Source: Syntrophales bacterium
GTDB lineage: Bacteria; Desulfobacterota; Syntrophia; Syntrophales; PHBD01
Length of the DNA stretch: 64,000 bases
Reading direction: 5' to 3'
Assembly (NCBI GenBank): GCA_963668175.1
Contig: OY764159.1
Coordinates: 2,112,001-2,176,000, forward strand
Part shown: positions 31,497 through 60,516 of the stretch, piece after piece
Position numbering within the stretch: position 1 is the stretch's first letter
How the letters are laid out: every line of letters starts with the position of its first letter
The notes under the pieces: generated by a model
Seen by the model: only the letters and a program-made list of their open reading frames with translations
Told to the model about the DNA's origin: nothing
The model's database searches: none
Position numbers and translations under genes: made by a program

Positions 31497-31521
31497 AGTT
31501 ATTTAAAAGGAGGGCTGGAAG

Positions 31522-35797: not shown

Positions 35798-36007
35798 TTG
35801 GGCAAAACGCTGATAGGGAAGGATGAGATCAAGGCCTACACCCGCCGCTCGTGGCAGACGATCCAGGCCTGGATCGACACGGAGAACTTCCCGGCGCGGA
35901 AGATCGGGGGCATCTGGGAATCGAACAAGGACCTCGTGGACGAATGGCGCCGCAACAACATCCTCAAACGGCCGCTGGTGGGGAATTATCCAGATATCAT
36001 CAGTTGA
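35798..36007 (+). CDS. Small phage-type HTH (excisionase/AlpA-like) protein
   Basis: IKAYTRRSWQTIQAWI....FPARKIGGIWES. Confidence 0.7.
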   Translation: MGKTLIGKDEIKAYTRRSWQTIQAWIDTENFPARKIGGIWESNKDLVDEWRRNNILKRPLVGNYPDIIS

Positions 36008-36031
36008 TAACGCGTAAGCTGCTTTATTTGT

Positions 36032-38760
36032 CTAGTGTTGCGGGTAATCGGAAGCCTTTGAAAGCTCTTTGACCTTCCATAAGAAGTACAATTCATCTTG
36101 ACTGATCGTCTCTTTCTTGTCGCTCTTCGCCATGGTTTCTTCAATGACTTCCGCACCTATTTTAGTCGCTCCAAATGCAGCAGCGCCTGCCAGCGGCGTT
36201 GTAAAGATTCCAGTTAGAAAACCAACAGATATAGCACCCGTCCATCCTGCAATTTTGCGCACAACTCCCTTAAAAAGGGATTTATCAGCTTTGCTAATTT
36301 TAGCGCTCAGAGATGCTAAGCGTGGTTGAAGAATGTCCGCATAAACTGCTTGAGCATCTCTCTCTGTAAATGAGTCACCCGCTATCTTGTATTCTTCTAT
36401 CGCTTTGGTCAATGCTGCTCTGAACAAAATGAATGCTTCTTGTTCGCTATTTCGAAGTTTTATAAGGCTTTGTGCGTCAACAGATTCAACGAAAGGAAGA
36501 AGGCAGGTAAGATATTTTTGCATAAGCATTGTATGCCGCCTAGCTATCGGATCACCCGTTAAGTTCTTTATGAAATTAATTTCGAGATCACTATCAGTGG
36601 AGTTGCCCCTATTTCACCGGACACTGTTCTAACTTATTTTGATGTCTCCTATACTCCCTGGGCGACATCATTTTCAATCCCTTGTGCGGATGGTTTTCAT
36701 TGTAGTCTACGAACCATCCGGGCAGTTGCTTCATGACCGTTTCGGCATCAGTCAGGATATTCAGATGAACATAATCCCTCTTGAAGGTCTTGACAAAGGA
36801 TTCGGCCATGCCGTTCGATTCCGGGCTGTAGAACGGGGTCGTGCAAACCTCAAGCCCCATCATCTGCCCAAAGCTTTTCGTTTCCCTGGCGGTGTACGCA
36901 GGACCATTATCGCTCAGCCACTGGATTCTGTGAGGCAGCCGATTGATCATACCGAAACGGGCCTCAATGGCTTCCGCCATCAAGTCCCTGACCATGTCGC
37001 CGGATACGCCCCCTGTCGTGGCTACATAACTCATGATTTCCCTGTCGCAACAATCCATGCTGAACGCTACCCGGAGACGGTCCCCATTCCAGCAGGCAAT
37101 CTCAAACGCATCGGAACACCAACGAAGATCGCTCCGTCTCGTCGTGACCTTACCCTCGTGAAGCCTTGCCGGCCTACCCGTATGCCGCTGAAGAAGCAGA
37201 TTGTGCATCTTCATGAGACGATAAATCCGTTTGGGGTTAACTCCCGGATGCCCCTGACGTTCCAGAAACCTGTTGATTCTTGCCGTTACTCTCCGATAGC
37301 CGTAACTGGGACGATTATCAATAACCTGCCTGATCAGAAGAAGATATCTGCCATCGTCGCCTCTCCTGTAATGGCGGCTTCTCGAATCGGCTTCCTTCCC
37401 TTGCCTTTCGTACTGCCGGGAACGGGAAACGTCCAGCGTATCGACAACCGTCTTCATCGGGAATCGTCCTCCGGCAACAACGGCAACCGCGAGATCAGTT
37501 TTTTTTCACGGGCAATCCGGACAGCCTCTCTTAATATCTCCACCTCCATTGTCTTTTTGCCCAGAAGACGCTCCAACTCCCGGATCTGCTTCTTCAGTTC
37601 TCTGGCTTCCGATGCAGGAACGACGCCTTCATCTGCACCAACCGCCGACAGAGCCCCTTCTTCGGCAAGCCTGCGCCAGTGGAACAGTTGGTTCGGATGG
37701 ATGTCATACTTCCGGGCTACAGCCGAGATGCTCATTCCCGGCTGCTCCGCCTCCCGCACCGTCGACTTCTTCTCGGCAGCCGACCAGCGACGTCGCCTCT
37801 GTACACCGACGATCACTTCTACAGGAACCATAAACACCTTCTTTCTGGTTGTAGTAATATCTCTATATCTATTCCTACAACTTATTTCCAGATTCAAAGT
37901 GTCCGGTTCAATTGGGGGCTACTTCAATCAGACAAGAATGATGTCTTCAGCAAATCAGCAACACCTAATTCAAAGGCGATATTGTGAATGAGCGGTGTGA
38001 AGGGTATGTTATGCGCCTTAAGCTTTTTAGCTTGATCTGTGGTTAGCTTAATTATTCCACATTTTTTGACCTGCTCTACAAGCCTTGGAGCTTTACTATA
38101 GATTTCGTCCTGGATAAGATAAGTATGACACCACAAACCATGAGGTAATATTGAATCTGGCCCAGAACTGATTAGTGTCATTTCGTCATTCTTATAAATG
38201 AGTGAGTATGCTACTTCCTTCAAAAACCTTCTACGTAACGCATCTGACAACACGTTATATCTTGGGTTCTTATCCTGCGATAGAGCATCTATACATAGAC
38301 AATGCGGACAAACATTGCCAAAAGAAACCATCTGGACTATGTCAGATTCAATTAAAGGCAGTAATTCACAAAATACAATCAAATCATCCAAGAATTTATA
38401 GCGGAAAAAGGCCTCTAAATTCGCTGGTTTTCTATCAGCATACGCAAGTAAGTCTGTAAAATAATTCTTGATGAAAACCTTATCACTGTATAAAGCGGCA
38501 AACTGTGTCAACTCTCTAATCTTTTCAATTCGGCATGAAGGACTGGAACATGGATATGAACTTCCACCCAAAGATGGCGCTGCGGCGTGAGAGAATATCG
38601 ACGGACTGGCATTTATATTGGTATAATGTGTTATATCGGTGGATTGTTGGCAAACATCAATAATATGGCTTGCCTTCAGTTTGCGAATATACTTTATGAT
38701 TGGTTTGCCATTTCTTATCAACCCGGCATTTTCAAACAAAGCCTTAAGAGGGTGTTCCAT
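36032..38760 (-). pseudogene. Low-GC hypothetical gene (~465 aa) interrupted by an IS
   Basis: Removing the IS and one ATCAG copy joins ...KTSFLSD to SDLEINFIK...MLMQKY in frame. Confidence 0.85.
36598..37926 (-). mobile_element. Second copy of the IS2-group IS3 element, 1329 bp, TSD ATCAG
   Basis: Nearly identical to 4163-5491 in inverted orientation; ATCAG at 36593-36597 and 37927-37931; orfB 36609-37457, orfA 37454-37831. Confidence 0.97.
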
Positions 38761-39046
38761 ATTCTTTTATACCTATAAATTATTATCGTGACAGCCTCGT
38801 ATATGCCCTTTATTTACCAGCTGTTAACGGAACTATGAGGCAGTTTATTGTGTGTGTCAAGAAAAAATGGACGAAATTGCTAGAACTATCATTAGATATT
38901 TCGTCGCTTTAACATATTGAGTCCACGATAATTCCGGTACGCCTACATATTTTCCCCCTTTTCCCTCGGTCAGACACCGGCGGACTTGACGCTGGCGGCT
39001 ATCCGTCAAGCGCAATAAAAGGTCATTCTTCCGCTATACGCCCGAA

Positions 39047-39192
39047 TCGGTAAATAATCATTATATAATACTATATTTATATTGCATTAGGCCGTTTATC
39101 GTTTATAATATCAGTATAATATCCTGACATGGCCGGATGGCGAGGGGGAGTTCGTAACCGTTTGATATTTTTATGCGAGGTGCATCATGAAT
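39047..39192 (+). repeat. Second copy of the ~146-bp promoter/leader block
   Basis: Matches 30554-30699; supplies RBS and ATG of the 39187 gene. Confidence 0.92.
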
Positions 39193-39891
39193 GAAAAGAG
39201 CCGTGAAGTAAAAAGAAGCGCCGCGACGATGAGCCGGAAGGACGATCGACCGGGCATCCGGTGCGCGACGATTCGATCCGCCTGCCTTCTTTTTATGGCC
39301 CTGTTCGTTTTGGCCTGGAGTCCGGGAGCATTCGCAGCGGAACCCGGCAGCCCCGCATTGTCCCAAGATAAGGAAGGTCAAGCCGCCGGGGAGAACGCAG
39401 GCGGGGAATTCAAAAAATATCGTGCCGTATTCAGCGAGCTGGTTTGCGGAGATGTCAAGGCATTGGCGGTAAGAATACGATCAGAGGAAGACAGCTTTCC
39501 TTTGATTGAAGCTGTTGACCAGAGAATATACTTTATCAACAAGACCGGCCGGATCAAGCTTGTCAAGGATTCATGGGATAACAAGTTGAATCGAAACAGG
39601 ATTAATTCTTCGGGATATATTTATCCCGCAGTATCCTGGGATTGTACGAGAGATAAGAGAGGAAAACCTTACATCATTATTTTCTCATGGTCCGGCGGTA
39701 ATTATCGGGGAGCCGAATGGACCGAAATCTATGATCTGGATGGCAGATTGGTGGCGAGCAACTATTCAGAAAAGATAAAGAATTTTCGACGCATCAATGA
39801 TTTGTTTGACAAGAAAATAGAAAAATTAGGAATTCGTTACGATTGGAGATCTGCAAAAAAAATCAGATTTAAAGAACAAGACGGGAGGTAA
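39187..39891 (+). CDS. Secreted putative immunity protein for effector 3 (true start may be further downstream)
   Basis: Hydrophobic signal ...LFMALFVLAWSPGAFA; ends 5 bp before effector 3. Confidence 0.65.
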   Translation: MNEKSREVKRSAATMSRKDDRPGIRCATIRSACLLFMALFVLAWSPGAFAAEPGSPALSQDKEGQAAGENAGGEFKKYRAVFSELVCGDVKALAVRIRSEEDSFPLIEAVDQRIYFINKTGRIKLVKDSWDNKLNRNRINSSGYIYPAVSWDCTRDKRGKPYIIIFSWSGGNYRGAEWTEIYDLDGRLVASNYSEKIKNFRRINDLFDKKIEKLGIRYDWRSAKKIRFKEQDGR

Positions 39892-39896
39892 GCTGG

Positions 39897-41093
39897 ATGC
39901 CGAAAGAAACAAATTACAATATCTTAATCGATAAAACGCCTGGCCGTTCTGCCGGGAACAGTCGAAAAGCAGGGGCTGCTCCATACGAAGTGAAGGTGAA
40001 AGCCGTGGAAGCGATCAGGAAGTATGCAGGTCTTTATGGATTCAATGAACATCAGACCAGCGAAGTCTTGAAAATCGTGGAACACGAATCTGGATTTAAT
40101 CCAGATGCTGCGAATCCAGACACAACTGCGTCCGGACTAGGACAGATGATGAATGACACGTTTGAGCAGTATGGGCCGCGTGGTGCGAATATTTTCGATC
40201 TGGATGCCAACGCAGAGGCAACAGTCAGATACTATCAACATTGCCTGAACAAAGCCGCAGAGAAAGGACTGACCGGAGAGAAGTTGGATACAGGTGCGTA
40301 TGCGTGTTATCATGACGGCCCGTGGAATTTTAAAGCCGGTAAGGATAAAAAAGGTGCGGATATTTATAAAAAGGTCATTAAAAAATTATCCGGTAAGCCC
40401 AAGGTTAGCAGTAACGAACGCTCCTCCAGCAACTCCGACAAGGTAGCCGAGGCGACGGAACGGGATTCCGAGCGGACAGCCGCGGCTGAGCAGCCGGACG
40501 ATGCTTATTCAACCGAAGACAGGAAGAGAAAAGACCTCGCGGGAGACGACGCCGAATCTGAAACGGCGTGGAGAGGCGGAAATTCAGATCGTCGAAGCAT
40601 ACCTAATTCATGGATAGCGGATGCCGGTAACGTGCTTTCAGATGTGTCCGGAAATGCTCTTCAAAGCGCCCTCCGCGAGGCAAGAAAGCCAACGGATGTC
40701 GAATCGGCCGCGAACACGATGACGCTTCGTGAGGCGCCGACCGATTTGCTTGCCGAACCGGGTTCTCCATTGCAGCACGTAATGGATGCGCTGGGGGTGT
40801 CGTCCGGCGATGTGCATTTAACCCCTGCGGAAGCGGACGATGAGAACGAGACACCGGACTCCTTCGATATTGTGGATAAGGGCACATCCGAAAAGATAGG
40901 CTCTTGTTTGACGACACCCGGCGGCTGCGAGATGACCGCAGGCGACCGGAAGGTCGTGATGGACCGGATAAGCGGTAATGACATTCACCTGCAAACGTAT
41001 GCCAAAAACGACGATGGAGATTTTGAGCTCGTTGGCACAACGCGAATCGGCGACAACGACGGGGTAACGGCAAGAAGGCCGTTTGCGGGTTAG
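39897..41093 (+). CDS. Putative effector 3: lytic transglycosylase-like N-terminus plus shared C-terminal domain
   Basis: IDKTPGRSAGNSR, HESGFNPDAANPDTTASGLGQM, YACYHDGP; no signal peptide. Confidence 0.8.
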   Translation: MPKETNYNILIDKTPGRSAGNSRKAGAAPYEVKVKAVEAIRKYAGLYGFNEHQTSEVLKIVEHESGFNPDAANPDTTASGLGQMMNDTFEQYGPRGANIFDLDANAEATVRYYQHCLNKAAEKGLTGEKLDTGAYACYHDGPWNFKAGKDKKGADIYKKVIKKLSGKPKVSSNERSSSNSDKVAEATERDSERTAAAEQPDDAYSTEDRKRKDLAGDDAESETAWRGGNSDRRSIPNSWIADAGNVLSDVSGNALQSALREARKPTDVESAANTMTLREAPTDLLAEPGSPLQHVMDALGVSSGDVHLTPAEADDENETPDSFDIVDKGTSEKIGSCLTTPGGCEMTAGDRKVVMDRISGNDIHLQTYAKNDDGDFELVGTTRIGDNDGVTARRPFAG

Positions 41094-41167
41094 CGAATGA
41101 GGCCGCTTCGTGATGCGATTACGAGAAGCGGTGCAGCGCACACAGACATTGACCGGAAGGATAACGC

Positions 41168-41536
41168 ATGCGAGATGAATTTTCTTTCTCTGAAGTCGAA
41201 CGGATTGTTCCGGCTATTAAAAGAAGCACCGCCCAGATGTGGGTCAAGGCTGGGATTATTGTGCCGAAAGAGAATCATGTGGGCCGAGGGGTGTCGCGGG
41301 TTTACTCTTTCGAAAATCTCATTGAGCTTTTTGCAGCTGCGGAATTATCCGGATGTTGGGGGATGGCCACGAAGGGCATAGAATCGCATCTGAAGCGTCC
41401 AAGGTTTAAGAGTGCCGTCAAAGAGAGAGGCGTCTATTGCCGTGTTCGCTATGGTAACGATGCAGACAGCGGCATTACATCGGCTGTGATAATATTCATT
41501 GGAGAAATTGCGGCGGAGATAGAAAGGCGGCTGTAA
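41168..41536 (+). CDS. MerR-like HTH DNA-binding protein (phage type)
   Basis: FSFSEVERI...RSTAQMWVKAGIIVP.....GRGVSRVYSFENL. Confidence 0.65.
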   Translation: MRDEFSFSEVERIVPAIKRSTAQMWVKAGIIVPKENHVGRGVSRVYSFENLIELFAAAELSGCWGMATKGIESHLKRPRFKSAVKERGVYCRVRYGNDADSGITSAVIIFIGEIAAEIERRL

Positions 41537-41667
41537 TATCGGCTCGATTAATTAGTCTTAGAAAAACCTTGACAGTCCCTATATTCCTCTATTAATAGAT
41601 ATACAATCTGCATAGGACGAATGGTTTATTAAAACACAGGCAGAGCAACACGCATTGTCGGCCTGCT

Positions 41668-42243
41668 ATGACATCCGCTTCCGATCAAACCGTTAATACT
41701 GCGCCGGAGTCGCTCACAAGCGATCATTATACAATCTTTCATTTAATCCTCCAGCTCGCTTTTGCCGCGCTGTTATTCTTTTTGAACGAACTCGATAGAA
41801 GGCTGAATCTCTATCTGCTGCTGGTTCCGCTCCTCCTTGTCCCGGCATTAGTAGTGGTGATTATCTGGCTGACCAGCGTCATAACAAACAGCATTAGAAA
41901 GAGGTGGCGTCGTCTCGCTTCCGCCGTCATTGCACCGGTGATCATTTTTTGCCTCATGGCCTCGCTTGCTCACTGGCGGATCGATGCGGATTGGGTACGC
42001 TTTCAGGCAAACCATCGACACTATGAAAAATCGGTACAGTTCCTCAAGGGGCCGCACCCCAGACATGTTACGTGGGATTGGGGCCATACCGGAGGCGCGG
42101 CGGTCGTCTGCATTGATTACGAACTCCACTACGACGAATCCGATTTAACAAAGCTCCGAGATGGAGAGAGGAAAGGGGGCGGTATCATCAGAGTCCGCGA
42201 TTTCGGAAACCACTTCTACCTCGTTACCGCCGTCTATCAATAG
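41668..42243 (+). CDS. Membrane protein, orphan homolog of the 30921 immunity-like gene
   Basis: Three TM segments; WVRFQ...HY, YELHYDESD, RVRDFGNHFYLV; same length (191 aa). Confidence 0.65.
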   Translation: MTSASDQTVNTAPESLTSDHYTIFHLILQLAFAALLFFLNELDRRLNLYLLLVPLLLVPALVVVIIWLTSVITNSIRKRWRRLASAVIAPVIIFCLMASLAHWRIDADWVRFQANHRHYEKSVQFLKGPHPRHVTWDWGHTGGAAVVCIDYELHYDESDLTKLRDGERKGGGIIRVRDFGNHFYLVTAVYQ

Positions 42244-42325
42244 AATCCCGTCATATTCCGGGGACGGTATGTTTCCGGGGGAACCATCCCCCGGCCAGAG
42301 AATGCGTTACGTATTTTTCGATTTC

Positions 42326-43237
42326 TTATTTATGAAATAATTCAAATCTCCGCAAATGAAGATTGAGACTTCTCGCAAATCCATCGAGACCTGGAAACAA
42401 GGTCGACGGATTGACATTCATTTCATGAAGGTCATATAACGCTTCTTTATGAATATCTCTTGATATGACTATTTTCAATATCGCAACATCTCGGAAATCA
42501 AACTCTTCTAATCGGGCCGTCTCAATTTGCGTCGCATCGGCGCTTGATAATTCATCAAAAGTTATCTCAAATGCAGCGCATAGATTCTTTTCGAAGGACG
42601 ACTGTCTATTGCATGGGAATAAAAAAATACCCTGTTGCATCCAGAGACGAGTATGTTGGAGGAAAGGGTCGATTAACAAGACAGAGTTTTCACTCTCTTC
42701 TTTTGAATTCAGGCATTCGTTTGCCCTGTCTTTGTGCGCTTTGACTATTTCTCTGTATGGATGAGAGTATGGCGACATGCCGCCAATTTCTACCGAATCT
42801 ATAAGCATGTTTATGTTAATGGCCCAAACGGCCGAATCGTCCGTTGAATTTTCCATAGCAAAGAACGCTGCTATAAAGAAGGAATCCGTAAAATCCAAGA
42901 GCCTCGTACTCCCGCCGTAGTGCTGCAAGAAAGATAGCCATTCGATGCTGTTATTTAATTCCGGAAGTTTATGCTCGAAGAGATGAGCTCGACGTTGAAA
43001 TTCGCTAAGCATATACAATTCTGTATTTTGATAGTGGTATTTAGTGCATTGGTATTGCTCGGCGTCTCTCTCGAATCTCGTTGATAAAGGCCACTCTTTA
43101 TCTCCCTGGCCACGAAATGCCCAAATAGGAGCCCCGGCTTTCATGCACGAGAGAAGCTTTCCTCGGTCATTCCAGGAGTCAATTGCTATTTCACAAAATT
43201 TATGTGAATCCGTCTTCAAATGATTTCCCTTAGCCAA
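42326..43237 (-). CDS. FRG-domain protein
   Basis: FRGQ, LQHYGGSTRLLDFT, AAFFA, R..QQGIF, LFPGLDG. Confidence 0.9.
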   Translation of the reverse strand: MAKGNHLKTDSHKFCEIAIDSWNDRGKLLSCMKAGAPIWAFRGQGDKEWPLSTRFERDAEQYQCTKYHYQNTELYMLSEFQRRAHLFEHKLPELNNSIEWLSFLQHYGGSTRLLDFTDSFFIAAFFAMENSTDDSAVWAININMLIDSVEIGGMSPYSHPYREIVKAHKDRANECLNSKEESENSVLLIDPFLQHTRLWMQQGIFLFPCNRQSSFEKNLCAAFEITFDELSSADATQIETARLEEFDFRDVAILKIVISRDIHKEALYDLHEMNVNPSTLFPGLDGFARSLNLHLRRFELFHK

Positions 43238-45741: not shown

Positions 45742-46692
45742 TTATTTTCCGAACTTCCTTCTTGCGCGCCTCCTGCAGGGGGCAACCGCAACACCTGCCA
45801 AGCCGAAACCAAGAAGCAGCATGGTACCCGGTTCAGGAACGGGTGTCGAACTCTGCATGTTCCCAATGAATCCATGGACATTTTGTTCGGCATCTTGGTA
45901 ATATCCCACGATCTGGCCGTTGTCGTTGATGCCGGTAAGAAAGGTGCCGCCCACACCATCCGGGTTGTCAATGATCGTGCAATCCGAATCACTGCAAAGG
46001 AACCCGTGCGTGATTCCGTCTTGATAGAAATACCCGACGATTTGCATTGAATTGTTGATTCCCGTTGCGTACGTTTCGACCGCTCCCGGATATTGGACTG
46101 CCCGGACCACTGTTTTAGTCGGCCAGGAATAGATTCTGCTTATCTCCAGCAAACCGTTGTAAACCGCAATGTCGCCTTTGTTATTAATTGCATAAGCGAG
46201 TACATTGTCTTGTATGTGCCATATTTTTGCCTCGGTGGTATTGTAAAGGAAAGCATACTGGCTCAATATTCCCGTGTAATATCCGACAATGTCGCCGTTG
46301 TCGTTGATTCCGGAAGGCCTCATCGAAAAATTACCATAGTAGATCCATCTCAACTCCGTTCCGTCAGTGCTGCGAACGAAACCGTCCGTGTGGTCATTTT
46401 TTATTCCTGTACCGACAATCTGACCGCTATTATTGATGCCCGTCAAAAAGGTGTTGCCATCGCCGACCTTAACAGTCGTGTAAGTCCCTCCACTGTCTCG
46501 CACGAAACCAGAGTACCCTTCGCCCGGGACTGCAAAACTGCCGACGACCTCGCCGGAATTATTGATCCCATTTGCGTAGGTAAGAGTAGCGCCCGGAACA
46601 TCGATAGCGGTAAACGTATAGTCGGCATGAGCTACATTAAATCCTATGACTAAAAAAAGCGTTGGGAGTAATGCTGCAAAAGCCTTTTTCAT
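45742..46692 (-). CDS. PEP-CTERM protein with HAF/GIN-type extracellular repeats
   Basis: Signal peptide; repeated GINNSGQIVG; VPEPGTMLLLGFGLAG. Confidence 0.92.
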   Translation of the reverse strand: MKKAFAALLPTLFLVIGFNVAHADYTFTAIDVPGATLTYANGINNSGEVVGSFAVPGEGYSGFVRDSGGTYTTVKVGDGNTFLTGINNSGQIVGTGIKNDHTDGFVRSTDGTELRWIYYGNFSMRPSGINDNGDIVGYYTGILSQYAFLYNTTEAKIWHIQDNVLAYAINNKGDIAVYNGLLEISRIYSWPTKTVVRAVQYPGAVETYATGINNSMQIVGYFYQDGITHGFLCSDSDCTIIDNPDGVGGTFLTGINDNGQIVGYYQDAEQNVHGFIGNMQSSTPVPEPGTMLLLGFGLAGVAVAPCRRRARRKFGK

Positions 46693-46726
46693 TTCAAATC
46701 TCCTAAGGCAAATGGTTATTGTGAAT

Positions 46727-46861
46727 TTACTTCCTGAACTTCCTCCTCGCGCGCCCCCGTGCAGGGGGCAACCGCAACGCCTGCTAAGCCGAGGCCAAGA
46801 ATGAGCGTAGTGGTGGGTTCGGGGACAGAAGAGGGATCGACAAAAGTCCGGATTTTCTCAT
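46727..46861 (-). pseudogene. Internally deleted PEP-CTERM gene remnant
   Basis: RBS plus ATG AGA AAA TCC joined out of frame directly to VPEPTTTLILGLGLAGVAVA...RRKFRK*. Confidence 0.75.
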
Positions 46862-46892
46862 ATCCCCCTCTTATTTTATTTTCCCGAATCGT

Positions 46893-47087
46893 CGCAAATT
46901 GCATACCAAGATGATAAGCAGCTGTATTCATGAATTAATTCCCATGGCCTCAGGTTTCCGATCTTCATTAAATGTAAAGAAATGTTACACAAATATTCGC
47001 TGAGAGTACATGGTATAGGTATAGTATAATATTATCCACAGGTTGAATGGCTGGAATCTTCTGGGTAGATTGTCGGAATTATTTACA
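46893..47087 (-). promoter_or_regulatory. Sigma54 promoter (46893-46908) with TGT-N11-ACA sites (46973-46989, 47071-47087)
   Basis: TGGTATGCAATTTGCG differs by 1 nt from the 21316 promoter. Confidence 0.7.
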
Positions 47088-47862
47088 CCAGGCCGTGGGG
47101 CCACTGGGATATCGAAGCGTATGCGCAGTTATCAGTGACCGTCTTTCAGACGGTTATCGATAATCTTCGAATGAACACGAATGAGAAGATAGTAGGTGTA
47201 AGCGACGGGCAAGGCAGAGCCTGTCCTGACGGGGGCTGCAATGTCGCGTATCGGCCGGGGCGATGAATGCGGTTGTCGTCGTCGCCCGCCTTCCGGCGGC
47301 GTTAAACGGGATTTCGGCGGTGCGGGAGGTCTTGTCGGAAGCGGATTGACGGGAATAACCCGCCCCGGGTTCCGGCTGATGTCTGAAATGCGATCTGTCA
47401 ATATCTGCGCGGTTCCGTGCCGAAGTCCCCATGTCCGGGAAGGGGCGCTTTCCCGATAGTTTCATTATTACGGATAGATGGCCTGATAGTCGTCTGGCCG
47501 GCTGTTTTAAGCCGGCCGTCTGCACAAAATCGATGCGGAAAAGCAGTACGAAAGTCAGCCTGACAATAGTATTCTCTGGATTATTATCGGCATCGATTTA
47601 TCAGCGATGTTCAAAAAAAATGTCCGGAAGTCTTTACATAATAGGTAAATAATGATATATACCATAGTTATATATTGACTGATAAATGTACCTGATCTCC
47701 GCCCGCTACAACCGACCTGAGTAACATACGGGATCGGGACAGATGTGATAAGCGGTATCTGTTTAAAATTGTTCGATTAATGATAAATTGCCCGTTTCAT
47801 GCTCAGCCTGGCATGAATAAAGCGGCCTTTCGCAGTCAATCATTAGCTGATGAGGAGGAATA

Positions 47863-48483
47863 ATGAAAAAGATCTTACTGACACTCTGCATGACATTCAT
47901 TCTTTTTACGGCTCCGGTCCAGGCGGCCAATGTCACCCTGATCGACCAGGGTGCGACATGGAACTATTCGGTTCTTAGCACGGACCTGTGGTCCAATTGG
48001 TCGGCGGCCGGATACGCATCGTTCAACTGGGCCGATGCCGCGTGGTCGACCGGTAACGCCGCGTTCGGCAACGCCTCATTTACGTTGCCCTATCAGACTT
48101 ATTGGGGGGCAAATACCGATCTGGCGCTTCAGAAAGTTTTCACCATCAACGGTACGCTTTCCGGGCCTTTAACGCTTAACGTCGCCGCCGATAACGGGTT
48201 CATCGTCTTCATCAACGGTCACGAGGTAGCCAAACGGAATGCGGAAGGAATTACCAATTACTGGCAATATACGTTGCAGCTTTCTTCACTCGATTTCATC
48301 GCTCCGGGCAGCAATACCATTCAGGTGCTGGCGGAAGATCACGGCATCATGACGTTCTTTGACTTGAAATTGACGGGAAACGTCGACCCTGTCCTTAACC
48401 CTGTTCCAGAGCCCGTTACGATTCTGCTGCTCGGCCTCGGACTGACAGGTGTCGCTGTTGCAAGGAGAAAATGCAACCGATAG
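47863..48483 (+). CDS. PEP-CTERM protein
   Basis: Signal peptide; ADNG..VFINGHEV; VPEPVTILLLGLGL; possible sigma54 site at 47809-47824. Confidence 0.9.
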   Translation: MKKILLTLCMTFILFTAPVQAANVTLIDQGATWNYSVLSTDLWSNWSAAGYASFNWADAAWSTGNAAFGNASFTLPYQTYWGANTDLALQKVFTINGTLSGPLTLNVAADNGFIVFINGHEVAKRNAEGITNYWQYTLQLSSLDFIAPGSNTIQVLAEDHGIMTFFDLKLTGNVDPVLNPVPEPVTILLLGLGLTGVAVARRKCNR

Positions 48484-53231: not shown

Positions 53232-54614
53232 TTACAGCACCAGCTCTTCGATGAAGGCGATGAGCTGGTTGACGTTGCCGCAGACGCGGACTTCGTGGCA
53301 GTGCCGGGCGTAGGTGTAGATTTCGCTGTCGGCCGTGCCCCAGAGGTTCTCCGCCTCGGGGTTCAGCCAGATGACGCGTCGGCAACGGTCCCGCATCTCG
53401 CCCAGGATCGCGTCCTCGGGGTGCGTATAGTTCCCCCGCCCGTCGCCGACGACGATGAGCGTCGTCCTCTTCGTGAGCAGCTCCATGTACGACCGCTTGA
53501 AGTGGCGGAAGGTCTCGCCGTAATCGGTCTGCGCGTTGTAGCGGACGTCCGCGTTCTTCGTGACGATGCCGATCGCCTCTTCGATGCCGTGTTCCGCGAA
53601 GATGTCCGTCACATCCGTCAGCCTGTCGACGAAGACGAAGCTGTTCACCTTGTCGAAGCAGTCCTGGAGGGAGTAGAGGAGGTTGAGCATGAAGCGGGCC
53701 GCCGTCCAGACGGAGCTGGACACGTCGCACAGCGTGACGATGCGGCTTTTGCGCAGGGCCTTCCGGCGGTACCGGATCTCGATGGGGACGCCGGTGTACT
53801 TGGCCGCCGACCGCAGCGTCTTCTTGACGTCCAGGTTGCCCCGGTCGCGCACCGCGAAGCGGCGGCTGACGACGTTCCGGAGTTTCCTCACCAGCTTGTC
53901 GACGGCCTCCCGCATCTCCTCGACTTCCCCGCGCGTGAAGGACGAGAAGTCCTTCTCCCCCAGCTCCTTCAGGCGCTGTTCGTGGGTCTGGACGGTCCGC
54001 GTCCCGGTGTCGCTGCCCGGTTCGTACATCAGGATGGAGCGGGCGGAGGCCAGCCGTTCGTCGACGTGGGCGGCAAGCTCGCGGCGCTGCGTGGGAGCCA
54101 TGCTCAGATCGTCGCTATCCAGGAGGGCCGAGGCGGCGGAGGCGGTCCGGATGATCTGCATGAGGACGTTCATGCGGCTCGCGAGCGGCCCGAAATTGAA
54201 CCGGGCCGATGCCTCCGGGGCATCCGACTCCTGGTGGATGCGGCGCATTTCGGCGAGGAGCGGCAGCGGATTGCCCGCCACGAAGTCCACCACCGCGCCG
54301 TAGACCGGGTTGTCGTCGGGCTTCTCCCTGAGGAGCTTCGCCGCCTTCCGGATGTGCTCGGCCTGATCGGCGGCCTGCCGCATATCGCCCGCGTTCACGC
54401 GCATTTCATGGAAGAAGAGACGGTAGAGGCGGTCGAAGTGAGGAATCTCCCGGACGCTCTTGGCAAAGTTGGCGCGGAGCAGCGCCCTGAACTGCAGTTC
54501 GTCCGTCGGGTCGATCAGTTCCATCTGCCGGAAGCTGTCGAGGACCTCCGCGGTGGAGATGCGCAGGCCGGAGGCCCGGCAGCAGGAAGCGAATTGCTGG
54601 ATAAGCTTGACCAT
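53232..54614 (-). CDS. VWA-domain CoxE-like protein
   Basis: LCDVSSSV MIDAS-like motif, TDYG, IVVGDGRGN, IWLNPE. Confidence 0.9.
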   Translation of the reverse strand: MVKLIQQFASCCRASGLRISTAEVLDSFRQMELIDPTDELQFRALLRANFAKSVREIPHFDRLYRLFFHEMRVNAGDMRQAADQAEHIRKAAKLLREKPDDNPVYGAVVDFVAGNPLPLLAEMRRIHQESDAPEASARFNFGPLASRMNVLMQIIRTASAASALLDSDDLSMAPTQRRELAAHVDERLASARSILMYEPGSDTGTRTVQTHEQRLKELGEKDFSSFTRGEVEEMREAVDKLVRKLRNVVSRRFAVRDRGNLDVKKTLRSAAKYTGVPIEIRYRRKALRKSRIVTLCDVSSSVWTAARFMLNLLYSLQDCFDKVNSFVFVDRLTDVTDIFAEHGIEEAIGIVTKNADVRYNAQTDYGETFRHFKRSYMELLTKRTTLIVVGDGRGNYTHPEDAILGEMRDRCRRVIWLNPEAENLWGTADSEIYTYARHCHEVRVCGNVNQLIAFIEELVL

Positions 54615-54656
54615 GAATCAGAGACTTTCATATGACAGGCCGCGCCCCCCGCATGG

Positions 54657-54844
54657 GGGGTGTTGAAAAACGCCCATCTGTTACTTGCCCCCTTCAGGGG
54701 GGGCTTTTGCGCGTCCCCTAAAGGGGATAAATCACCTAAAGGTGACAAGCCTTGCATCTGGACATTTTTGAACCCCCTGAAGGGGGCGAGCAACCTGCGT
54801 TCCCCCTGCATAGGGGGTTCAAAAGCGAGTTTTTCAACAAGCTG
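54657..54844. mobile_element. MITE-like element with terminal IRs and multiple internal hairpins, between MoxR and VWA
   Basis: TGTTGAAAAAC ... GTTTTTCAACA IRs; internal CCCCC/GGGGG, TCCCCT/AGGGGA and TCACCT/AGGTGA hairpins. Confidence 0.7.
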
Positions 54845-54880
54845 TTAAATCCCGATAGCTCCGGCGGCGCCCCCCGCCTG

Positions 54881-55789
54881 TCAGGGGACGACGCGGTCCA
54901 TGTGCTTGCGCACCTTCTCCATGTCCGCCCGGTACTTGCAGATGACGTTCAGCGTCTCCGAAACGACCTCAGGCGTCAGCTCCGCGATTTGCAGGGCCAG
55001 GAGCGACTGCGCCCAGTCCAGCGTTTCCGAGATGCTGGGGCTCTTCTTGAGATCGAGGCCGCGGATTTTGCGGATGGCGGAAACCAGCGCGGCGCAAAGC
55101 TTTGCCTCGATGCCGGGGATCTTCAGGCGGACGATGGCGATCTCCGTATCCTCGGCGGGGTAGTCGATGTAGAGGTGGACGCAGCGGCGCTTGAGGGCGT
55201 CGCTCATGTCTCGGTAGTTGTTGGACGTAAGGAGCACGAAGGGGATCTTCACGGCCTTGCGGGTGCCCAGCTCCGGGATGGACACCTGGAAGTCGCTTAA
55301 AAGCTCAAGAAGGAAGGCCTCGAACTCCGGGTCGGACTTGTCGACTTCGTCCAGAAGCAGCACCACCGGCTCCTTCGAGCTGATCGCCTGCAGGAGCGGG
55401 CGCGGCTGGATGAAGCGGTCGGAGAAGAAGGCGTCCTCCTGGGCGCCGATCTGGTCCACCGCCTCCGTCAGGGTCGCCGTGGGGGCGATGATGTCGTTGA
55501 TGCGGTCTTTCACCATCTGCGTGTAGAGGAGCTGCTTCGCGTACTCCCATTCGTAGAGGGCCTTGGCCTCGTCCAGCCCCTCGTAGCACTGGAGGCGGAT
55601 CAGCTCGCGGCCGAGGCTCCGGGCGACGGCCTTGGCCAGTTCCGTCTTGCCGACGCCCGCCGGCCCTTCGATCAGGACGGGCTTCTGCGTCGCCTGCGCC
55701 AGGAAGACGACCGTCGCGATCTCCCGCGACGGAATATAGCCCGCCTCCGCGAGCCTCTTCTCCACATCGTCGACACTCCGGTAATCCAT
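54881..55789 (-). CDS. MoxR/CoxD-family AAA+ ATPase
   Basis: EGPAGVGKTE, IRLQCYEGLD, LLDEVDK, DALKRRC; start MDYRSV. Confidence 0.95.
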   Translation of the reverse strand: MDYRSVDDVEKRLAEAGYIPSREIATVVFLAQATQKPVLIEGPAGVGKTELAKAVARSLGRELIRLQCYEGLDEAKALYEWEYAKQLLYTQMVKDRINDIIAPTATLTEAVDQIGAQEDAFFSDRFIQPRPLLQAISSKEPVVLLLDEVDKSDPEFEAFLLELLSDFQVSIPELGTRKAVKIPFVLLTSNNYRDMSDALKRRCVHLYIDYPAEDTEIAIVRLKIPGIEAKLCAALVSAIRKIRGLDLKKSPSISETLDWAQSLLALQIAELTPEVVSETLNVICKYRADMEKVRKHMDRVVP

Positions 55790-56156
55790 GAATAACGTCG
55801 TCCTTTCCTTGCGATACATATCCGGCGGCACGTGCCCGGGTACAGGGCGCAAGACCGCGCCGTCGCCTGCCGCCTGAGGATACCACCGGGGCCGCCGGAT
55901 GCCCAGCAAAATCTATCTCTTGGAAAAACGGGGGGTTAACGGGGCGGACAGATGCCAATCCGGAGAAAGTGCGGGCCTCGGAGGGATATCAAAAAAACGG
56001 ACGGAAAGCGGGCGGAAACGGAAAGACGAGACCGGTTGGCGAATCATGGGCGTCGGGATAATTCCGGGGACACCACACTTAATTATTATAATAAAATAAA
56101 GTGAACCGTCGCCGTTGCCGCCCGGCCGGAAACACCCTTCCCCGGAACCCTTTCCC

Positions 56157-56837
56157 CTAACGCACGGGCTGGTTTTCAGGGCGTATCCATTGGGGGAGGA
56201 TGGATTTCTCGATCCTGACCTTCTGCAATGCGGGGTATTCGGAAAGGTACAGCTTCATATCCTCCTCGAATCTATCTTCGGCAACAACATCGTAAGTCCC
56301 CGTGGAAGCGCCGACCACCGCCTGATCGATCAGCGGTACGACTTTTCCCGCTCTTTCTTCGCTGTCGCTTTTCCTTTCCCGCAGCACGACGTCAAGATGT
56401 CCCAGGTAGATCACGGCGTTCGGTTTGATCTCCAGTTTATAATTCAGCGGAACGGAGCCGCCGCCGGTAATCGGGAAATGATCGTATGCCGCGCCGATGC
56501 TGTGAAAGGTGTACGCGCCTCCCGCAAGCTCAAAACTCAGCAGGTATTCGTTGAAGCTGTTCTCCACGCTTTTTATCCGGTAAGGAATGTCGGCCCTGTA
56601 GAAGCTGCTCCTCGACCCGTGGTCGCATCGCTCCGATTGCGGGCAGATAAGCGCGCCCATGATATCCAGCTGGTAGCCCGGCTTGTGCTGGTTCGCAATC
56701 TTGACCGAAAGCAGGGCCAGCGATTTTTTGGAGACGTCAATGTCCGTCTGGCCCTTGGTGAGCGCCATGTTGCCGCCCGCGCAACCCGCCATGACGAAGA
56801 CGGAACACAAGACGATAAGAAACCTTCGACTGATCAT
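56157..56837 (-). CDS. Lipoprotein of unknown function (cassette 1)
   Basis: RBS GGGAGG, MISRRFLIVLCSVFVMAGC lipobox. Confidence 0.8.
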   Translation of the reverse strand: MISRRFLIVLCSVFVMAGCAGGNMALTKGQTDIDVSKKSLALLSVKIANQHKPGYQLDIMGALICPQSERCDHGSRSSFYRADIPYRIKSVENSFNEYLLSFELAGGAYTFHSIGAAYDHFPITGGGSVPLNYKLEIKPNAVIYLGHLDVVLRERKSDSEERAGKVVPLIDQAVVGASTGTYDVVAEDRFEEDMKLYLSEYPALQKVRIEKSILPQWIRPENQPVR

Positions 56838-57007
56838 AACCCCTCCCGGCCAACGCCTCATCCATGATATCGGGGAATTCGTGAATTCGGGGGGCACCAC
56901 ACTCATTTAACAAAATTCCCCTGCCTGGCGGTTAATAATTAAGTATGACGTCCCCGGAATTACGACTGCCTGGCGGTTTATAATTAAGTATGGTGTCCCT
57001 GAATTGA

Positions 57008-57491
57008 CGATCTGGTCCACCGCCTCCGTCAGGGTCGCGGTGGGGGCGATGATGTCGTTGATGCGGTCCTTCACCATCTGCGTGTAGAGGAGCTGCTTGG
57101 CGTACTCCCATTCGTAGAGGGCCTTGGCCTCGTCCAGCCCCTCGTAGCACTGGAGGCGGATCAGCTCGCGGCCGAGGCTCCGGGCGACGGCCTTGGCCAG
57201 CTCCGTCTTGCCGACGCCCGCCGGCCCCTCGATCAGGACGGGCTTCTGCGTCGCCTGCGCCAGGAAGACGACCGTCGCAATCTCCCGCGAGGGGATGTAG
57301 CCCGCCTCCGTCAGCCTCTTCTCCACATCGTCGACACTCCGGTAATCCATGAATAACGTCGTCCTTTCCCTGCGATACATATCCGGCGGCACAAGCCCGG
57401 TTACAGGGCGCACAACCGCGCCGCCGCCTGCCGCCTGAGGATACCACCGGGGCCGCCGGATGCCCAGCAAAATATATCATTGGGAAAAACG
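57008..57491 (-). pseudogene. Truncated second allele of the MoxR 5' region plus upstream DNA (cassette 2), homologous to 55447-55930
   Basis: Bounded on both sides by the palindromic repeats; stops at ...AVDQI. Confidence 0.93.
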
Positions 57492-57603
57492 TCTGAATTT
57501 GGGGGACACCACGCTCATTTATCAGAATTCCCCTGCATGGCGGTTTATAATTAAGTATGGTGTCCCCCGAATTACGTTTGCGCCTGATTGCTGTGCGGCG
57601 ATA

Positions 57604-58134
57604 TTAGTAACGGCGCCGACGTATATTAACGCAGAGCCAGCAATTATTTTGATGTTGTACCAACTCAATCTTGAAATGGGGACTTCTTCGGATGCCGAAT
57701 CTATAAGGATAGAATTTGAATTCACGTGCCATTTGGGGAAAACGAAGTTTTAGACCGTCGACATACCGAGTGACACTTGGCTTATCAAGCCACGGACCAG
57801 TTTGTGGGTGTGGATCTTTGTATACGATGACTTGCCCTTTGGAGTCTCTGTAAATCGCAGTGGCACTATCTGGAAGAGATGCTGGAAATACGTCGTAAGG
57901 GCCACAAATTCTGTGGTGGGTAGTTGATGCCCTGAAATATGGTGCATCCTCAAAGAATACCTTTGTGCCATCTTCATAAGCAGTGAAACCTTCGCCTGAT
58001 TTTGTAAGCAATGGAAGGTGCTTTTCTGTCAGTCCAAAAAGTTGTTCTTTATCGCATTCCTCCCAAAACCATGTGCGCCAGTAATCATGACCATTCCTAC
58101 TGACAACGGAGGCTTCATATGACCAAGGCATCAT
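57604..58134 (-). CDS. Hypothetical protein (cassette 3)
   Basis: Low GC; RBS AAGGAG; fills the space between two repeats. Confidence 0.6.
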   Translation of the reverse strand: MMPWSYEASVVSRNGHDYWRTWFWEECDKEQLFGLTEKHLPLLTKSGEGFTAYEDGTKVFFEDAPYFRASTTHHRICGPYDVFPASLPDSATAIYRDSKGQVIVYKDPHPQTGPWLDKPSVTRYVDGLKLRFPQMAREFKFYPYRFGIRRSPHFKIELVQHQNNCWLCVNIRRRRY

Positions 58135-58305
58135 CAATCTCCTTTTCTGGAAAGTTCAAGCACTTTCCAATTAATATTACAAACAAATGGTGCAAATGAC
58201 GGAATTCGGGAATTCGGGGAACATCCATATTCATTTGTCTGAATTCCCCTGCCTGGCGGTTAATAATTAAGTATGACGTCCCCGGAATTGTGCTGTGGTT
58301 GGGAT

Positions 58306-58857
58306 TTAATAAAATCTTTTGTTCATAGCTTTCTTATAAACGTTCTCTAGATCAAACGTTACAGGATCTCTCTCCCCATCATCTGTTGAATTATCAATTA
58401 AATTGAACGCTATACCACCATTTTCAATTTCACCCAAAAAGCACAATTCTTTTTTTGAGGCTCTTCTGGCTAAGGCAAACTCTCCATGATCGCCTAAATA
58501 ATTATCCTTAAAGTCATCATCCCATTCGGGAACTGCTAGAACATAGACTTTATATTTGTTTTGCTGTGGGGATCCTATTATTAAAAGATATTTTTTATTA
58601 GTTTGCCGACTAAATACTTCTATTTTTTTATCATCATGCCATTCATATCCGTCAGGTTTTATTTCTATCCAACAACTGTAATCAGGGAGATAAAAATCAG
58701 GTAAGTACCATGTACCATCAATATCAAATCCTTCAACTTCATATTGATATTCTATTTCGAGTTCATCAAAGAACACCGCCCAGCGCGCTTCTAATCTACT
58801 ACGAAATTTGATGCCGTTATAATTTGTTTCAATAGTTTTTATCATTTTCCATCCCAA
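58306..58857 (-). CDS. Phage-type PD-(D/E)XK nuclease-like protein (cassette 4)
   Basis: FRSRLEARWAVFFD...YE.EG...YLPDFYLP...WIEIKP. Confidence 0.75.
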   Translation of the reverse strand: MGWKMIKTIETNYNGIKFRSRLEARWAVFFDELEIEYQYEVEGFDIDGTWYLPDFYLPDYSCWIEIKPDGYEWHDDKKIEVFSRQTNKKYLLIIGSPQQNKYKVYVLAVPEWDDDFKDNYLGDHGEFALARRASKKELCFLGEIENGGIAFNLIDNSTDDGERDPVTFDLENVYKKAMNKRFY

Positions 58858-58932
58858 CGATTAATATACCAACTTGGTTTATGCGATTTCCGGAGGCAAT
58901 ATTACGTCCCTGAATTGTTCGGAATTGGCAAG

Positions 58933-59469
58933 TCATTTTTTAATAATGCATCTTTGTAGATGCTCTTGAACTTCTCTCGGAAATTCATTGGCAGCTATTG
59001 AATCATCAAATAGCCACTTAAAATAAATAACCACTATATATCGTAGATCCCACATTGAAAAAATTGAATTATCAATTTCAATGTAAATTTCTGGTTTATT
59101 ATCGAAATATGATCTCCAGTCGCCCACTATAGGCGGGTAGGTTTTCTTCACCGGTGTTTTCTCATAATTTTTTTTTCGTAGAATCATATGCTTACTACCA
59201 TTGGTTAAATCTTTAAAAGCTTTTAACAACACCTGCATTTCAGATGTAGTACGTCCTTTTTTTTGACGAGCTAATCTGGGGCGATTCTGATCTTCGTCAA
59301 TCCAGTCATCATATAAGTGCCATGCAGTCACGAAAAAATTAAAACAATCATAAGGATTGCATTCCTCGCTCAATTTTTTATCTTCATAGAGCAGCTTCAT
59401 CAACATATCGTAACTACTACTTATTCCATAATCAAAATGTGGCGTATTATTTTCTATCAAGTCATTCAT
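58933..59469 (-). CDS. Hypothetical protein, possibly HEPN-like (cassette 5)
   Basis: NFFVTAWHL.D.W and KDLTNGSKH motifs; very low GC. Confidence 0.6.
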   Translation of the reverse strand: MNDLIENNTPHFDYGISSSYDMLMKLLYEDKKLSEECNPYDCFNFFVTAWHLYDDWIDEDQNRPRLARQKKGRTTSEMQVLLKAFKDLTNGSKHMILRKKNYEKTPVKKTYPPIVGDWRSYFDNKPEIYIEIDNSIFSMWDLRYIVVIYFKWLFDDSIAANEFPREVQEHLQRCIIKK

Positions 59470-59636
59470 ATGATTTATAAATTCTATGCCATACAGAATT
59501 CGGGGGACACATACTCATTTATCTGAATTCTCCTGAATGGCGGTTAATCATTAAGTATGGACGTCCCCTGAATTGGCGCACTTTTCAGAATAAACACATC
59601 AGCAATATCATAAACGCAAGGGCTTAAATTCCGCGT

Positions 59637-59909
59637 TTACTTCACGAAGTCTCTTAGTGCCTTACCGGCTTTGAACGTAGGAACTTTCTTGGCCGCAATT
59701 TTAATTGTTTTTCCAGTCTGTGGATTTCTTCCTTCTCTGGCCTTTCGCTTTGCAACAGAGTATGTGCCGAAACCAACAATCGTCACGGCGCTATCTCTTT
59801 TCATTGCGCCTTGAATGGCCTGATGATAACAATCAATGCAGCGGCTGGCCTGGGCTTTCGTAACTCCGGCACAACCAGCCACAAATGAAACGACATCTGC
59901 TTTATTCAT
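59637..59909 (-). CDS. HU-family DNA-binding protein
   Basis: MNKADVV, VGFGTY, RKAREGRNPQTG, VPTFKAGKALRD. Confidence 0.92.
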   Translation of the reverse strand: MNKADVVSFVAGCAGVTKAQASRCIDCYHQAIQGAMKRDSAVTIVGFGTYSVAKRKAREGRNPQTGKTIKIAAKKVPTFKAGKALRDFVK

Positions 59910-60516
59910 TTTTGCCCCTCCCCTTTTCGCTCTGCAACTGGAATTTGAGAGCCGCGATTTCTCTATCCCGCCGATCAATCTCCGCTTTCGATTGTTCAAT
60001 TTGTGATTTCAGCAAATACACTTCTCTTTTCAAATCGTTATTGGAAGGCTTAATATAATTCACATAGGCCCACGCGGACGAAGCGACGACCGCAACAACG
60101 GATACAGTGAACGTAGCCAGCTTCCACGGTTTGGCTTTCTTCGCCTCCAATATGTCAAGCCTTTCTTTCGTTGACAGCACGCCTGTGAGCTCCCAATGAT
60201 GCCTGCATTTCACCGGCATGTTTTCGGGATCTTTTAAATAGCCTCCCAGGCAAGTCCGCTTCACAGCCTTACGTATCAGAGACGTATCGCACTCTTCGCC
60301 GTTGTCGAATTTGGCAATTTCATCTTCTATAATCTTCTGGTCCTCGCGATCCAGAGTTTCTATAGAGTGGTCTTCGACGTACAAGTAGCAATTGTTCAAG
60401 CAATTTGGCAAGAATGGCCTCCTGGTACCTTCAGGAAACTGGTTCAACGCGAACGCGAGAGATAGGAAATGCAGTGAGATGTGAAAAACTTTGAACCGAT
60501 TTATGAGGCTTGTCAA
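59902..60516 (-). CDS. Hypothetical membrane-anchored coiled-coil protein (start uncertain)
   Basis: One TM segment plus coiled coil; stop overlaps the HU start. Confidence 0.55.
   Translation of the reverse strand: MTSLINRFKVFHISLHFLSLAFALNQFPEGTRRPFLPNCLNNCYLYVEDHSIETLDREDQKIIEDEIAKFDNGEECDTSLIRKAVKRTCLGGYLKDPENMPVKCRHHWELTGVLSTKERLDILEAKKAKPWKLATFTVSVVAVVASSAWAYVNYIKPSNNDLKREVYLLKSQIEQSKAEIDRRDREIAALKFQLQSEKGRGKNE

Follow-up and report, generated by a model that had tools for sequence, protein, structure and literature searches.

What is the origin of a DNA segment that repeats the beginning of a moxR gene next to the gene itself, and that ends on both sides at palindromic repeats? The question is raised by a window of 64,000 nucleotides (C1:2112001-2176000) in the genome of a Syntrophales bacterium, which is a single 4.57-Mb contig. 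The original prediction, made from the letters of the window, saw in the segment a captured foreign allele, held as a cassette between the repeats. The reading that we prefer, and to which we give a probability of roughly 55%, is that the fragment is the 5' relic of a second moxR allele, joined to the first by recombination at a variable island beside moxR that is studded with REP elements. The features of the locus are collected in Table 1.

Table 1. Features of the moxR locus and the adjacent island (positions in the window)
Feature	Position	Strand	Basis or remark
VWA (CoxE-like) partner, downstream of moxR	53232-54614	-	PF05762, E 1.3e-38
moxR-type AAA+ ATPase, 302 aa, allele A, first of the moxR-vwa pair	54881-55789	-	AAA_5 (PF07728), E 4e-13
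Copy A	55447-55930	-	141 nt upstream region and codons 1-114 of intact moxR
Single REP arm, inverted	56059-56088	-	30 nt, 90% complementary
Protein with lipoprotein-type signal (…FVMAGC…, by eye), GC ~55%, in the 1077-nt spacer	56157-56906	-	ORF
REPIN-like doublet 1 (two inverted REP arms and spacer)	56882-56969	+	reference copy, E 5e-27
Half repeat (spacer and right REP arm), adjoins truncated end of copy B	56966-57005	+	E 1.6e-7
Copy B	57008-57491	-	upstream region 57351-57491 and 114 codons of a putative second moxR allele, truncated
REPIN-like doublet 2, adjoins upstream end of copy B	57494-57581	+	long DNA hairpin
Array gene c1, 177 aa, no family match	57604-58137	-	ORF
REPIN-like doublet 3	58210-58297	+	repeat search
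Array gene c2, 183 aa, low GC, endonuclease/resolvase-like N-terminus	58306-58857	-	phrog_21138, E 1.7e-28
Short right-REP-arm remnant between two cassette genes	58900-58917	+	by eye, without statistical test
Array gene c3, 178 aa, low GC	58933-59469	-	ORF
REPIN-like doublet 4, most diverged	59494-59581	+	repeat search; fold z -2.52

The duplicated segment

Copy B, the fragment, and copy A, its counterpart in the intact gene, are both 484 nt long and align without a gap, with 22 mismatches (95.5% identity). Beyond the copy ends, the next 30 nt match at chance level (8/30 on the left, 10/30 on the right). The copied stretch holds 141 nt of upstream DNA, 114 codons and one further base of moxR, counted on the minus strand from the ATG at 55789. 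The copies stand in direct orientation, with a start-to-start distance of 1561 nt and a spacer of 1077 nt, which places the fragment about 1 kb from the intact gene. No third close copy is present in the genome, where the next best match is a paralogue of 71-78.5% identity. Eleven differences fall in the upstream 141 nt and eleven in the coding part; ten of the latter are synonymous, and the eleventh, non-synonymous, concerns residue 14, which is Ala in the intact gene but Thr in the fragment. The extent and the counts first obtained by manual comparison are therefore exact, and the fragment is indeed cut at the repeat boundaries. Its truncated end lies 1-2 nt from the conserved end of the half repeat 56966-57005 and its upstream end 2-3 nt from the full repeat 57494-57581. 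At the crossing point of copy B microhomology does not exceed 1 nt, and a loose similarity of 11/16 nt is located 10-25 nt off. The divergence between the copies is graded, with 17 differences in -132 to +72 (8.3%) and 5 in +73 to +343 (1.8%; Fisher p 0.0014), as would be expected where the end of a gene repeatedly serves as the recombination arm of a variable island.

Read on into the repeat, the frame of copy B forms an ORF of about 147 aa with its end at 56907 (114 MoxR residues and a 33-residue tail). The upstream 141 nt, the start codon and the open frame are all kept, and expression of the fragment is possible. It could further be imagined that selection keeps the truncated product as a small protein, perhaps one that modulates the MoxR hexamer; such selection would account for the scarcity of amino-acid changes. 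The upstream DNA contains a stretch of about 48 nt (55864-55912 and 57425-57473) that is identical in both alleles while the remaining upstream DNA is ~12% different; this is in line with such a role, and the stretch may be a candidate regulatory or leader element. A simple scan of 55400-57700 for a sigma-70 promoter or a terminator gave nothing in either upstream copy. According to Pfam, only the Walker A part of the AAA domain is retained, and the remainder of the AAA+ module is lost; no relative among 80 metagenome and 11 genome loci carries such a fragment; and selection on a new protein would not be expected to keep 113 of 114 parent residues exactly. We regard a selected mini-protein as improbable. 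For annotation, 56907-57350 is a relic and not a second moxR.

Support from the assembly

A chimeric co-assembly of two strains had been named at the outset as an outcome that would overturn the prediction. Two co-cultured strains with different alleles and islands might have been joined in one contig, and a CheckM-type contamination of 3.67% would allow for this. Four runs of one sample contain 93-95% of the sampled words of 54800-59700. The short-read evidence consists of Logan contigs, not raw reads, of two runs (X2 and X3) from one sample, the source sample being represented by contigs only. One contig, 55883-56943, bridges the joint 55930/55931 with zero mismatches, at a depth of 50.4 in X2 and 15 in X3. 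A second, 57444-58271, bridges 57491/57492, again with zero mismatches and with four fragment-specific letters (depths 51.4 and 16.1). Flanking contigs have depths of 49.3-55.5 in X2 (stated also as 49-56) and 15-16 in X3. Two of the three joints are thus bridged; the remaining one, 57007/57008, is not among the contig pieces displayed and comes from the deposited assembly. From a raw-read run with the same species label (X6), of which ~4% was sampled, no reads were placed.

The contig depth is even, at ~50x in X2 and ~15x in X3, across the intact gene, the spacer, the joint between the fragment and REPIN 2, and the array. A mixture of two strains would divide the depth between two paths, which is not the case, and the even depth therefore argues against a chimera. 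Furthermore, a joint between a REP end and the middle of moxR cannot come from a mis-join inside a repeat, and the genome is a single contig of the size given above. An assembly artefact thus seems very improbable.

The intact gene and its relatives

The intact gene is of the MoxR/CoxD type, in that the gene of an AAA_5-type ATPase is followed by a VWA CoxE-like gene. A VWA_CoxE gene also comes after moxR in 8/8 metagenome loci with at least 89% amino-acid identity. The closest NCBIfam model is that of a MadB-family ATPase, but since the score of 340.6 bits is under the cut-off of 475, the gene is not filed as MadB. The nearest moxR among 40 related genomes has 81% nucleotide identity, and the best metagenome moxR, among the 80 loci kept from 590 relatives, has 90% amino-acid identity. 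No allele close enough for a parental moxR was found in either set. The collections searched also yielded no genome or metagenome contig of the same species, and neither parental arrangement was seen in them. The upstream neighbours of the moxR relatives share nothing with the window, except for one HU gene (locus L172). The species-representative genome with the nearest moxR belongs to another family of the order (G016, G037 and same-family genomes were compared), and the moxR genes of the same family show only 68-74% identity. The moxR-vwa pair itself may have moved laterally.

The intergenic region between vwa and moxR (54615-54880) holds six short hairpins of the form C5-N4-G5 (for example CCCCCTTCAGGGGG). 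The depth of read contigs there is 3-9x that of the flanks, with many alternative joints, and these hairpins look like a separate, native family of multi-copy palindromes.

The repeats around the fragment

The repeat unit, about 88 nt long, consists of inverted arms GAATTYGGGGGACACCA...TGGTGTCCCCNGAATT around a conserved spacer. It has the inverted arms, the short spacer and the hairpin of a REPIN. Compared with shuffled sequences, doublet 2 folds better on both strands (z -3.96 on the plus strand, -3.51 on the minus strand), as does doublet 4, while no better folding is seen for doublet 1 (z -0.40) or doublet 3 (z +0.61). Judged by these characteristics and by the relatives described below, the repeats are identified as REP/REPIN-type palindromes of a RAYT (Y1 transposase) family. 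The half repeat 56966-57005 and the right half of doublet 2 are mutually closest, with 97% identity over 34 nt. The single arm at 56059-56088 and the right arm of doublet 1 bracket the lipoprotein gene. The whole genome contains four full doublets, all within 2.7 kb, and 10 hits of the REP motif with at most one mismatch, so that the high dispersed copy number expected of REP and REPIN sequences is not seen. There is also no RAYT in the genome, either intact or degraded (0 hits for PF01797; E of at least 0.37 in tblastn with three RAYTs), and a 22-mer spanning the REPIN spacer and arm has no exact match in the metagenome collection. These orphan REPINs probably arrived with foreign DNA.

An integron with its own integrase was considered as well and is excluded. 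The genome has six PF00589 matches, the nearest to the window at C1:1435670 and C1:2977331, and thus no tyrosine recombinase within ~0.68 Mb. Inspection by eye, without a covariance model, showed the attC core (RYYYAAC ... GTTRRRY) to be absent from the repeat ends GAATTYGGGG...CCCCNGAATT, and the internal GTTWATA of the repeats does not fit GTTRRRY. The proposal that the repeats are cassette recombination sites served by a resident recombinase had therefore to be given up.

The REP family in other genomes

The core of the arm, AATTAAGTATGRYGTCCCC, occurs in at least 129 stretches of species-representative genomes. To judge from the record titles of the matches listed, the 19-nt core is identical in Planctomycetota, Desulfobacterota, Nitrospirota, Bacillota, Alphaproteobacteria and Elusimicrobia. 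From the matches listed, 163 distinct contexts could be extracted, many of them inverted doublets. Several of the motifs among these matches lie ~40 nt upstream of a gene start encoding MARIARV..PG, or just past a C-terminus ..KPGPKPK. In a survey of 80 loci with full flanks, 233 ORFs lie within 250 nt of a motif, and their largest family comprises 9 ORFs from 8 loci. All three tested members of the motif-flanked family are Y1_Tnp, IS200-like proteins (PF01797, E 2e-7 to 2e-13). Their closest and only NCBIfam model is the REP-associated tyrosine transposase NF047646, which they match with 73.7 and 73.6 bits against a cut-off of 80. At three loci (L030, L222 and L223) the RAYT-like gene is bracketed by inverted copies of the motif, a few tens of nucleotides from both of its ends. 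The association of motif and RAYT is thus found in other genomes and not in the genome under study.

Within the order, the motif (at most one mismatch) is present in 56 of 300 other genomes and in 0/8 of the same family, with 1-21 copies per genome where it occurs; a reversed control pattern gave 2 hits in total. Some of the copies form arrays. Locus L222 (G145:C17:38000-57900), from a genome of the order, carries 16 REPs within 12 kb in addition to its RAYT at L222:11104-11766, and the ORFs of this array resemble, by eye, toxin-antitoxin pairs of the RelE/ParE and RHH types and P-loop ATPases. A contig of a Desulfotignum MAG (L041-L045) carries, at L041, at least 7 co-oriented REPs in 8 kb, among ORFs that look HicA-, nucleotidyltransferase- and HTH-like, again by eye, and pieces of an ATPase gene. 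Arrays of the 19-nt motif were also observed at L065 and L076. In gene content these arrays resemble integrons, but their elements are those of a Y1-transposase family.

A self-BLAST of 80 REP-bearing loci for partial duplicates adjacent to a REP gave one clear parallel to the moxR case. In a Kuenenia MAG (L089; 3512-4019 and 4697-5176), a 480-nt copy of hicB and ~31 codons of hicA (96% identity) breaks off at a distance of 11 nt from a REP that belongs to this family and has the same orientation to the gene as in the moxR case, and a full hicBA copy lies 1.2 kb away. The changes between these copies (~5 synonymous, ~5 non-synonymous) show no synonymous bias. A second candidate, L048, was rejected, since it consists of internal RHS/YD repeats and a duplicated 3' half of a RAYT.

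The array genes and the composition of the island

The small genes between the repeats are co-oriented and of mixed composition. The GC content is 0.37-0.39 at 58-60 kb versus ~0.63 around moxR, and the island is compositionally foreign. Across the whole window the GC content swings between ~0.38 and 0.68 (2000-10000, 31000-32000, 36000-43000, 46000-48000 and 58000-60000); it is a mosaic in which several foreign islands occur. The N-terminus of c2 also matches phrog_9019, a Holliday junction resolvase (E 6e-13). The lipoprotein gene, c1, c3 and a 204-aa ORF have no match in Pfam, NCBIfam or PHROGs. Rfam at gathering thresholds gave no match over the whole window, and a tRNA scan of the window found no genes, so that there is no tRNA-linked boundary of the island.

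Array gene c3 (58961-59474) is ~99% identical in a biofloc metagenome (X1), with 5 differences in 514 nt. It was not found with a c3 query in 400 other genomes of the phylum. The moxR contig of the same metagenome is only 92% identical (53 differences in 660 nt), which indicates that the content of the array is mobile on a finer scale than the chromosome. At the 3 comparable coding sites, out of the 11 that differ between the copies, this allele agrees with copy B in each case.

Such mobility would also be expected if two REPINs had come to lie around the moxR 5' end in another strain, and a RAYT-type Y1 transposase had then mobilised the composite of REP, moxR fragment and REPIN as a cassette that landed in the array. 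The short distances of both fragment ends from REP ends, the close kinship of the half repeat with REPIN 2, the small arrays of mixed origin that the REP family forms elsewhere (L222, the Desulfotignum MAG) and the near-identity of c3 in another community all fit this proposal. It is less easily reconciled with a genome that lacks any RAYT, and with the topology of the fragment, which lies outside the element: the REP arms point away from it, as in ordinary intergenic insertions of a REPIN. Moreover, transposition would only by chance have placed it 1 kb from its own homologue and with the same orientation, a second REP-fragment-REPIN unit was not found in the genome, and the REPIN-specific 22-mer is absent from the metagenome collection. 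On balance, a transposed cassette is unlikely, though it deserves to be kept in mind. Of the repeat-mediated capture in the original prediction, only the ends at the REP elements are borne out. The position beside the homologue in the same orientation fits homology-anchored recombination better than transposition.

The selection signature and the polarity of the branches

In a Nei-Gojobori analysis of the coding part (S=83.2, N=258.8), dS is 0.131 and dN 0.0039. The ratio dN/dS, which had been suggested as a check on the aligned copies, is 0.03, and this agrees with the claim that the fragment diverged within a functional gene. The alternative of an ordinary local duplication of the moxR 5' end, with an extra copy that decays neutrally, has in its favour that the copies are adjacent and in direct orientation. 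REP sequences are, moreover, recognised join-points of tandem duplications in enterobacteria. Under neutral drift of both copies the probability of at least 10 synonymous changes out of 11 is 6e-6. The fairest null for a local duplicate is one in which the intact gene is fully constrained and only the fragment drifts; the probability is then 6e-4, or 4.5e-3 with a transition bias of 8, the expected synonymous share being 39-49% (39% without transition bias) against the 10/11 observed. A neutral local duplicate is thus rejected because of its lack of such a synonymous bias, as had been argued at first.

The changes were polarised with 20 outgroup alleles from metagenomes and related genomes (71-85% nucleotide identity). 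This is usable at 5 of the 11 coding sites, the other sites being saturated with outgroups of ~80% identity. At coding positions 39, 40, 252 and 282 it is the intact gene that has the derived state, with 17-20 of the 20 outgroups agreeing with the fragment, and the only amino-acid change falls among these four sites. Residue 14 is Thr in 9/20 relatives and Ala in 0/20. The fragment is derived at position 123, where 19/20 outgroups have the state of the intact gene. In overall proximity, the fragment is nearer to 16 of the 20 outgroups and the intact gene to 3, with one tie. The fragment therefore has the shorter branch, and no non-synonymous change can be assigned to it at the 5/11 polarisable sites. 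This is the opposite of a decaying pseudogene, for which a longer branch with many non-synonymous changes would be expected, and it suggests that both copies evolved as working genes. Were the local duplicate to be rescued by gene conversion with the intact gene as donor, the synonymous differences would be lost too. A decaying local duplicate can hardly be considered any longer and is extremely improbable.

Copies A and B thus appear to have diverged in two separate but closely related lineages, each as part of a working gene, and to have been joined later. Their joining would represent a lateral exchange at the moxR locus. The truncation must be recent relative to the split of the alleles, since there is at most one non-synonymous change and this lies on the branch of the intact gene. 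Of the original prediction, the lateral exchange is borne out by the synonymous bias, while the designation of the fragment as the foreign allele is not: with four derived sites in the intact gene and one in the fragment, the polarisation gives a hint of greater change in the intact gene. It may be that the intact gene came in from outside and that the fragment is what is left of the resident allele.

A model for the origin of the structure

The direct orientation of the copies, each of which keeps its own upstream DNA, is the geometry expected of a homology-anchored insertion or displacement, or of a Campbell-type integration. In the sense of the gene, the order is the fragment with its upstream DNA (to REPIN 2 and the array), the REP end, the 1077 nt, and the intact gene with its own upstream DNA. 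In the 1077-nt spacer, additional REP elements and the lipoprotein gene are followed by one isolated REP arm and 128 nt of unique DNA.

From this arrangement we infer an order of events, an anchoring in homology, and the roles of donor and recipient. Two closely related lineages (dS ~0.13), each with a working moxR-vwa operon, would have differed in a small variable island starting 141 nt upstream of the moxR start codon. DNA of one lineage would then have entered the other, through a crossover anchored in the moxR/vwa homology on one side and, on the other, a joint where a REP arm has its outer end. The product would be the intact allele A, the 1077 nt with the lipoprotein gene and REP elements, and the truncated allele B, which would still be linked to its former upstream neighbourhood with REPIN 2 and the low-GC array. 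The only novel joint would be that between the REP end and codon 114, and the right-hand end of the homology would be the place where the upstream neighbourhoods differ. Since the abutting half repeat is a near copy of part of REPIN 2, the simplest origins for this joint would be the insertion of a REPIN into moxR or a break at the end of a REP hairpin. In a displacement version the left crossover would lie in moxR/vwa and the right joint at the REP. Alternatively, a circle of 1561 nt, closed by the joint of the REP end and codon 114, could have been integrated in the Campbell manner.

The Kuenenia locus, the one clear case among the 80 loci screened, shows the same architecture with hicBA. 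Against the model it should be noted that this parallel lacks the synonymous bias (5 and 5), that a microhomology of at most 1 nt at the joint is weak for classical illegitimate recombination, and that no conspecific arrangement was found in the collections searched, the nearest moxR having 81% nucleotide and 90% amino-acid identity. If the preferred reading is correct, the fragment records a past exchange between strains, and the DNA beside moxR is a swap site for small foreign genes, at which a REP end can be the breakpoint of the swap.

Comparison with known systems

REPs, REPINs and RAYTs are defined in PMC3116915 and PMC3337134 (Bertels and Rainey 2011), and RAYT groups are treated in PMC5581495. 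As in the REPINs so defined, there are two inverted REP arms, a short spacer and hairpins. The likeness extends to the inverted copies of the same motif that flank a Y1/HUH transposase gene at L030, L222 and L223. Differences are the very low copy number (10 here; 0-21 in 300 genomes of the order), the lack of a RAYT in the genome, the clustering of the copies in one island instead of their dispersal, and an associated protein whose 73.7 bits stay under the RAYT cut-off of 80. Classical REPs are lineage-specific, and textbook REPINs are abundant and lineage-bound, whereas the 19-mer is identical across several phyla. By its conserved core, its low copy number and its clustering in arrays of mixed origin, this REP/RAYT family departs from textbook REPINs.

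The sequential displacement arrays of the T6SS effector-immunity loci of Vibrio cholerae (PMC5361080) resemble the moxR locus in that incoming alleles recombine via conserved flanks and remnants of displaced genes remain next to the newcomer, so that an array builds up. Those arrays consist of effector and immunity genes without REP, whereas here the anchor is a housekeeping-type ATPase and the joint lies at a REP end. Homology-facilitated illegitimate recombination (PMC3240628) likewise has one end anchored by homology and the other joined illegitimately, so that foreign DNA is placed beside the anchor, but differs from the present case with its microhomology of at most 1 nt and its joint at the end of a palindrome. 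The position of this joint suggests a structure-directed or transposase-directed break. Shyamala, Schneider and Ames are said to have reported, in 1990, that tandem duplications in Salmonella have REP sequences at their join-points. The likeness is a duplication boundary at a REP element; theirs are identical copies formed in situ by REP-REP recombination, whereas here one REP joint connects diverged alleles. For the fragment, these displacement arrays, the homology-facilitated illegitimate recombination and the REP join-points are the nearest analogies.

Finally, integron arrays and CALINs share with the island a row of small genes of mixed composition that point the same way, each with an imperfect palindrome of ~88 nt behind it. 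They differ in that here no integrase is nearby, the motif is a RAYT-type REP without a GTTRRRY core at the ends (by eye), and the arms of the palindrome match the transposon-like inverted ends that flank a Y1 gene elsewhere. It is tempting to speculate that the REP motif AATTAAGTATGGTGTCCCC and a RAYT-like Y1 transposase form a cross-phylum, integron-like platform for gene capture, although we consider this rather doubtful. Just as conjecturally, single-strand cuts at REP ends would excise and re-insert the DNA between two REPs, and so build arrays of toxin-antitoxin and other small genes. With no better prospects, pieces of neighbouring genes, such as the moxR 5' end, would occasionally be captured and then travel between strains. 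If it is true that a Y1 transposase assembles such arrays, they would be a transposase-based analogue of integron arrays. Among the systems compared here, the fragment itself is most fittingly classed as a remnant of allelic displacement at a variable locus bounded by REPs.
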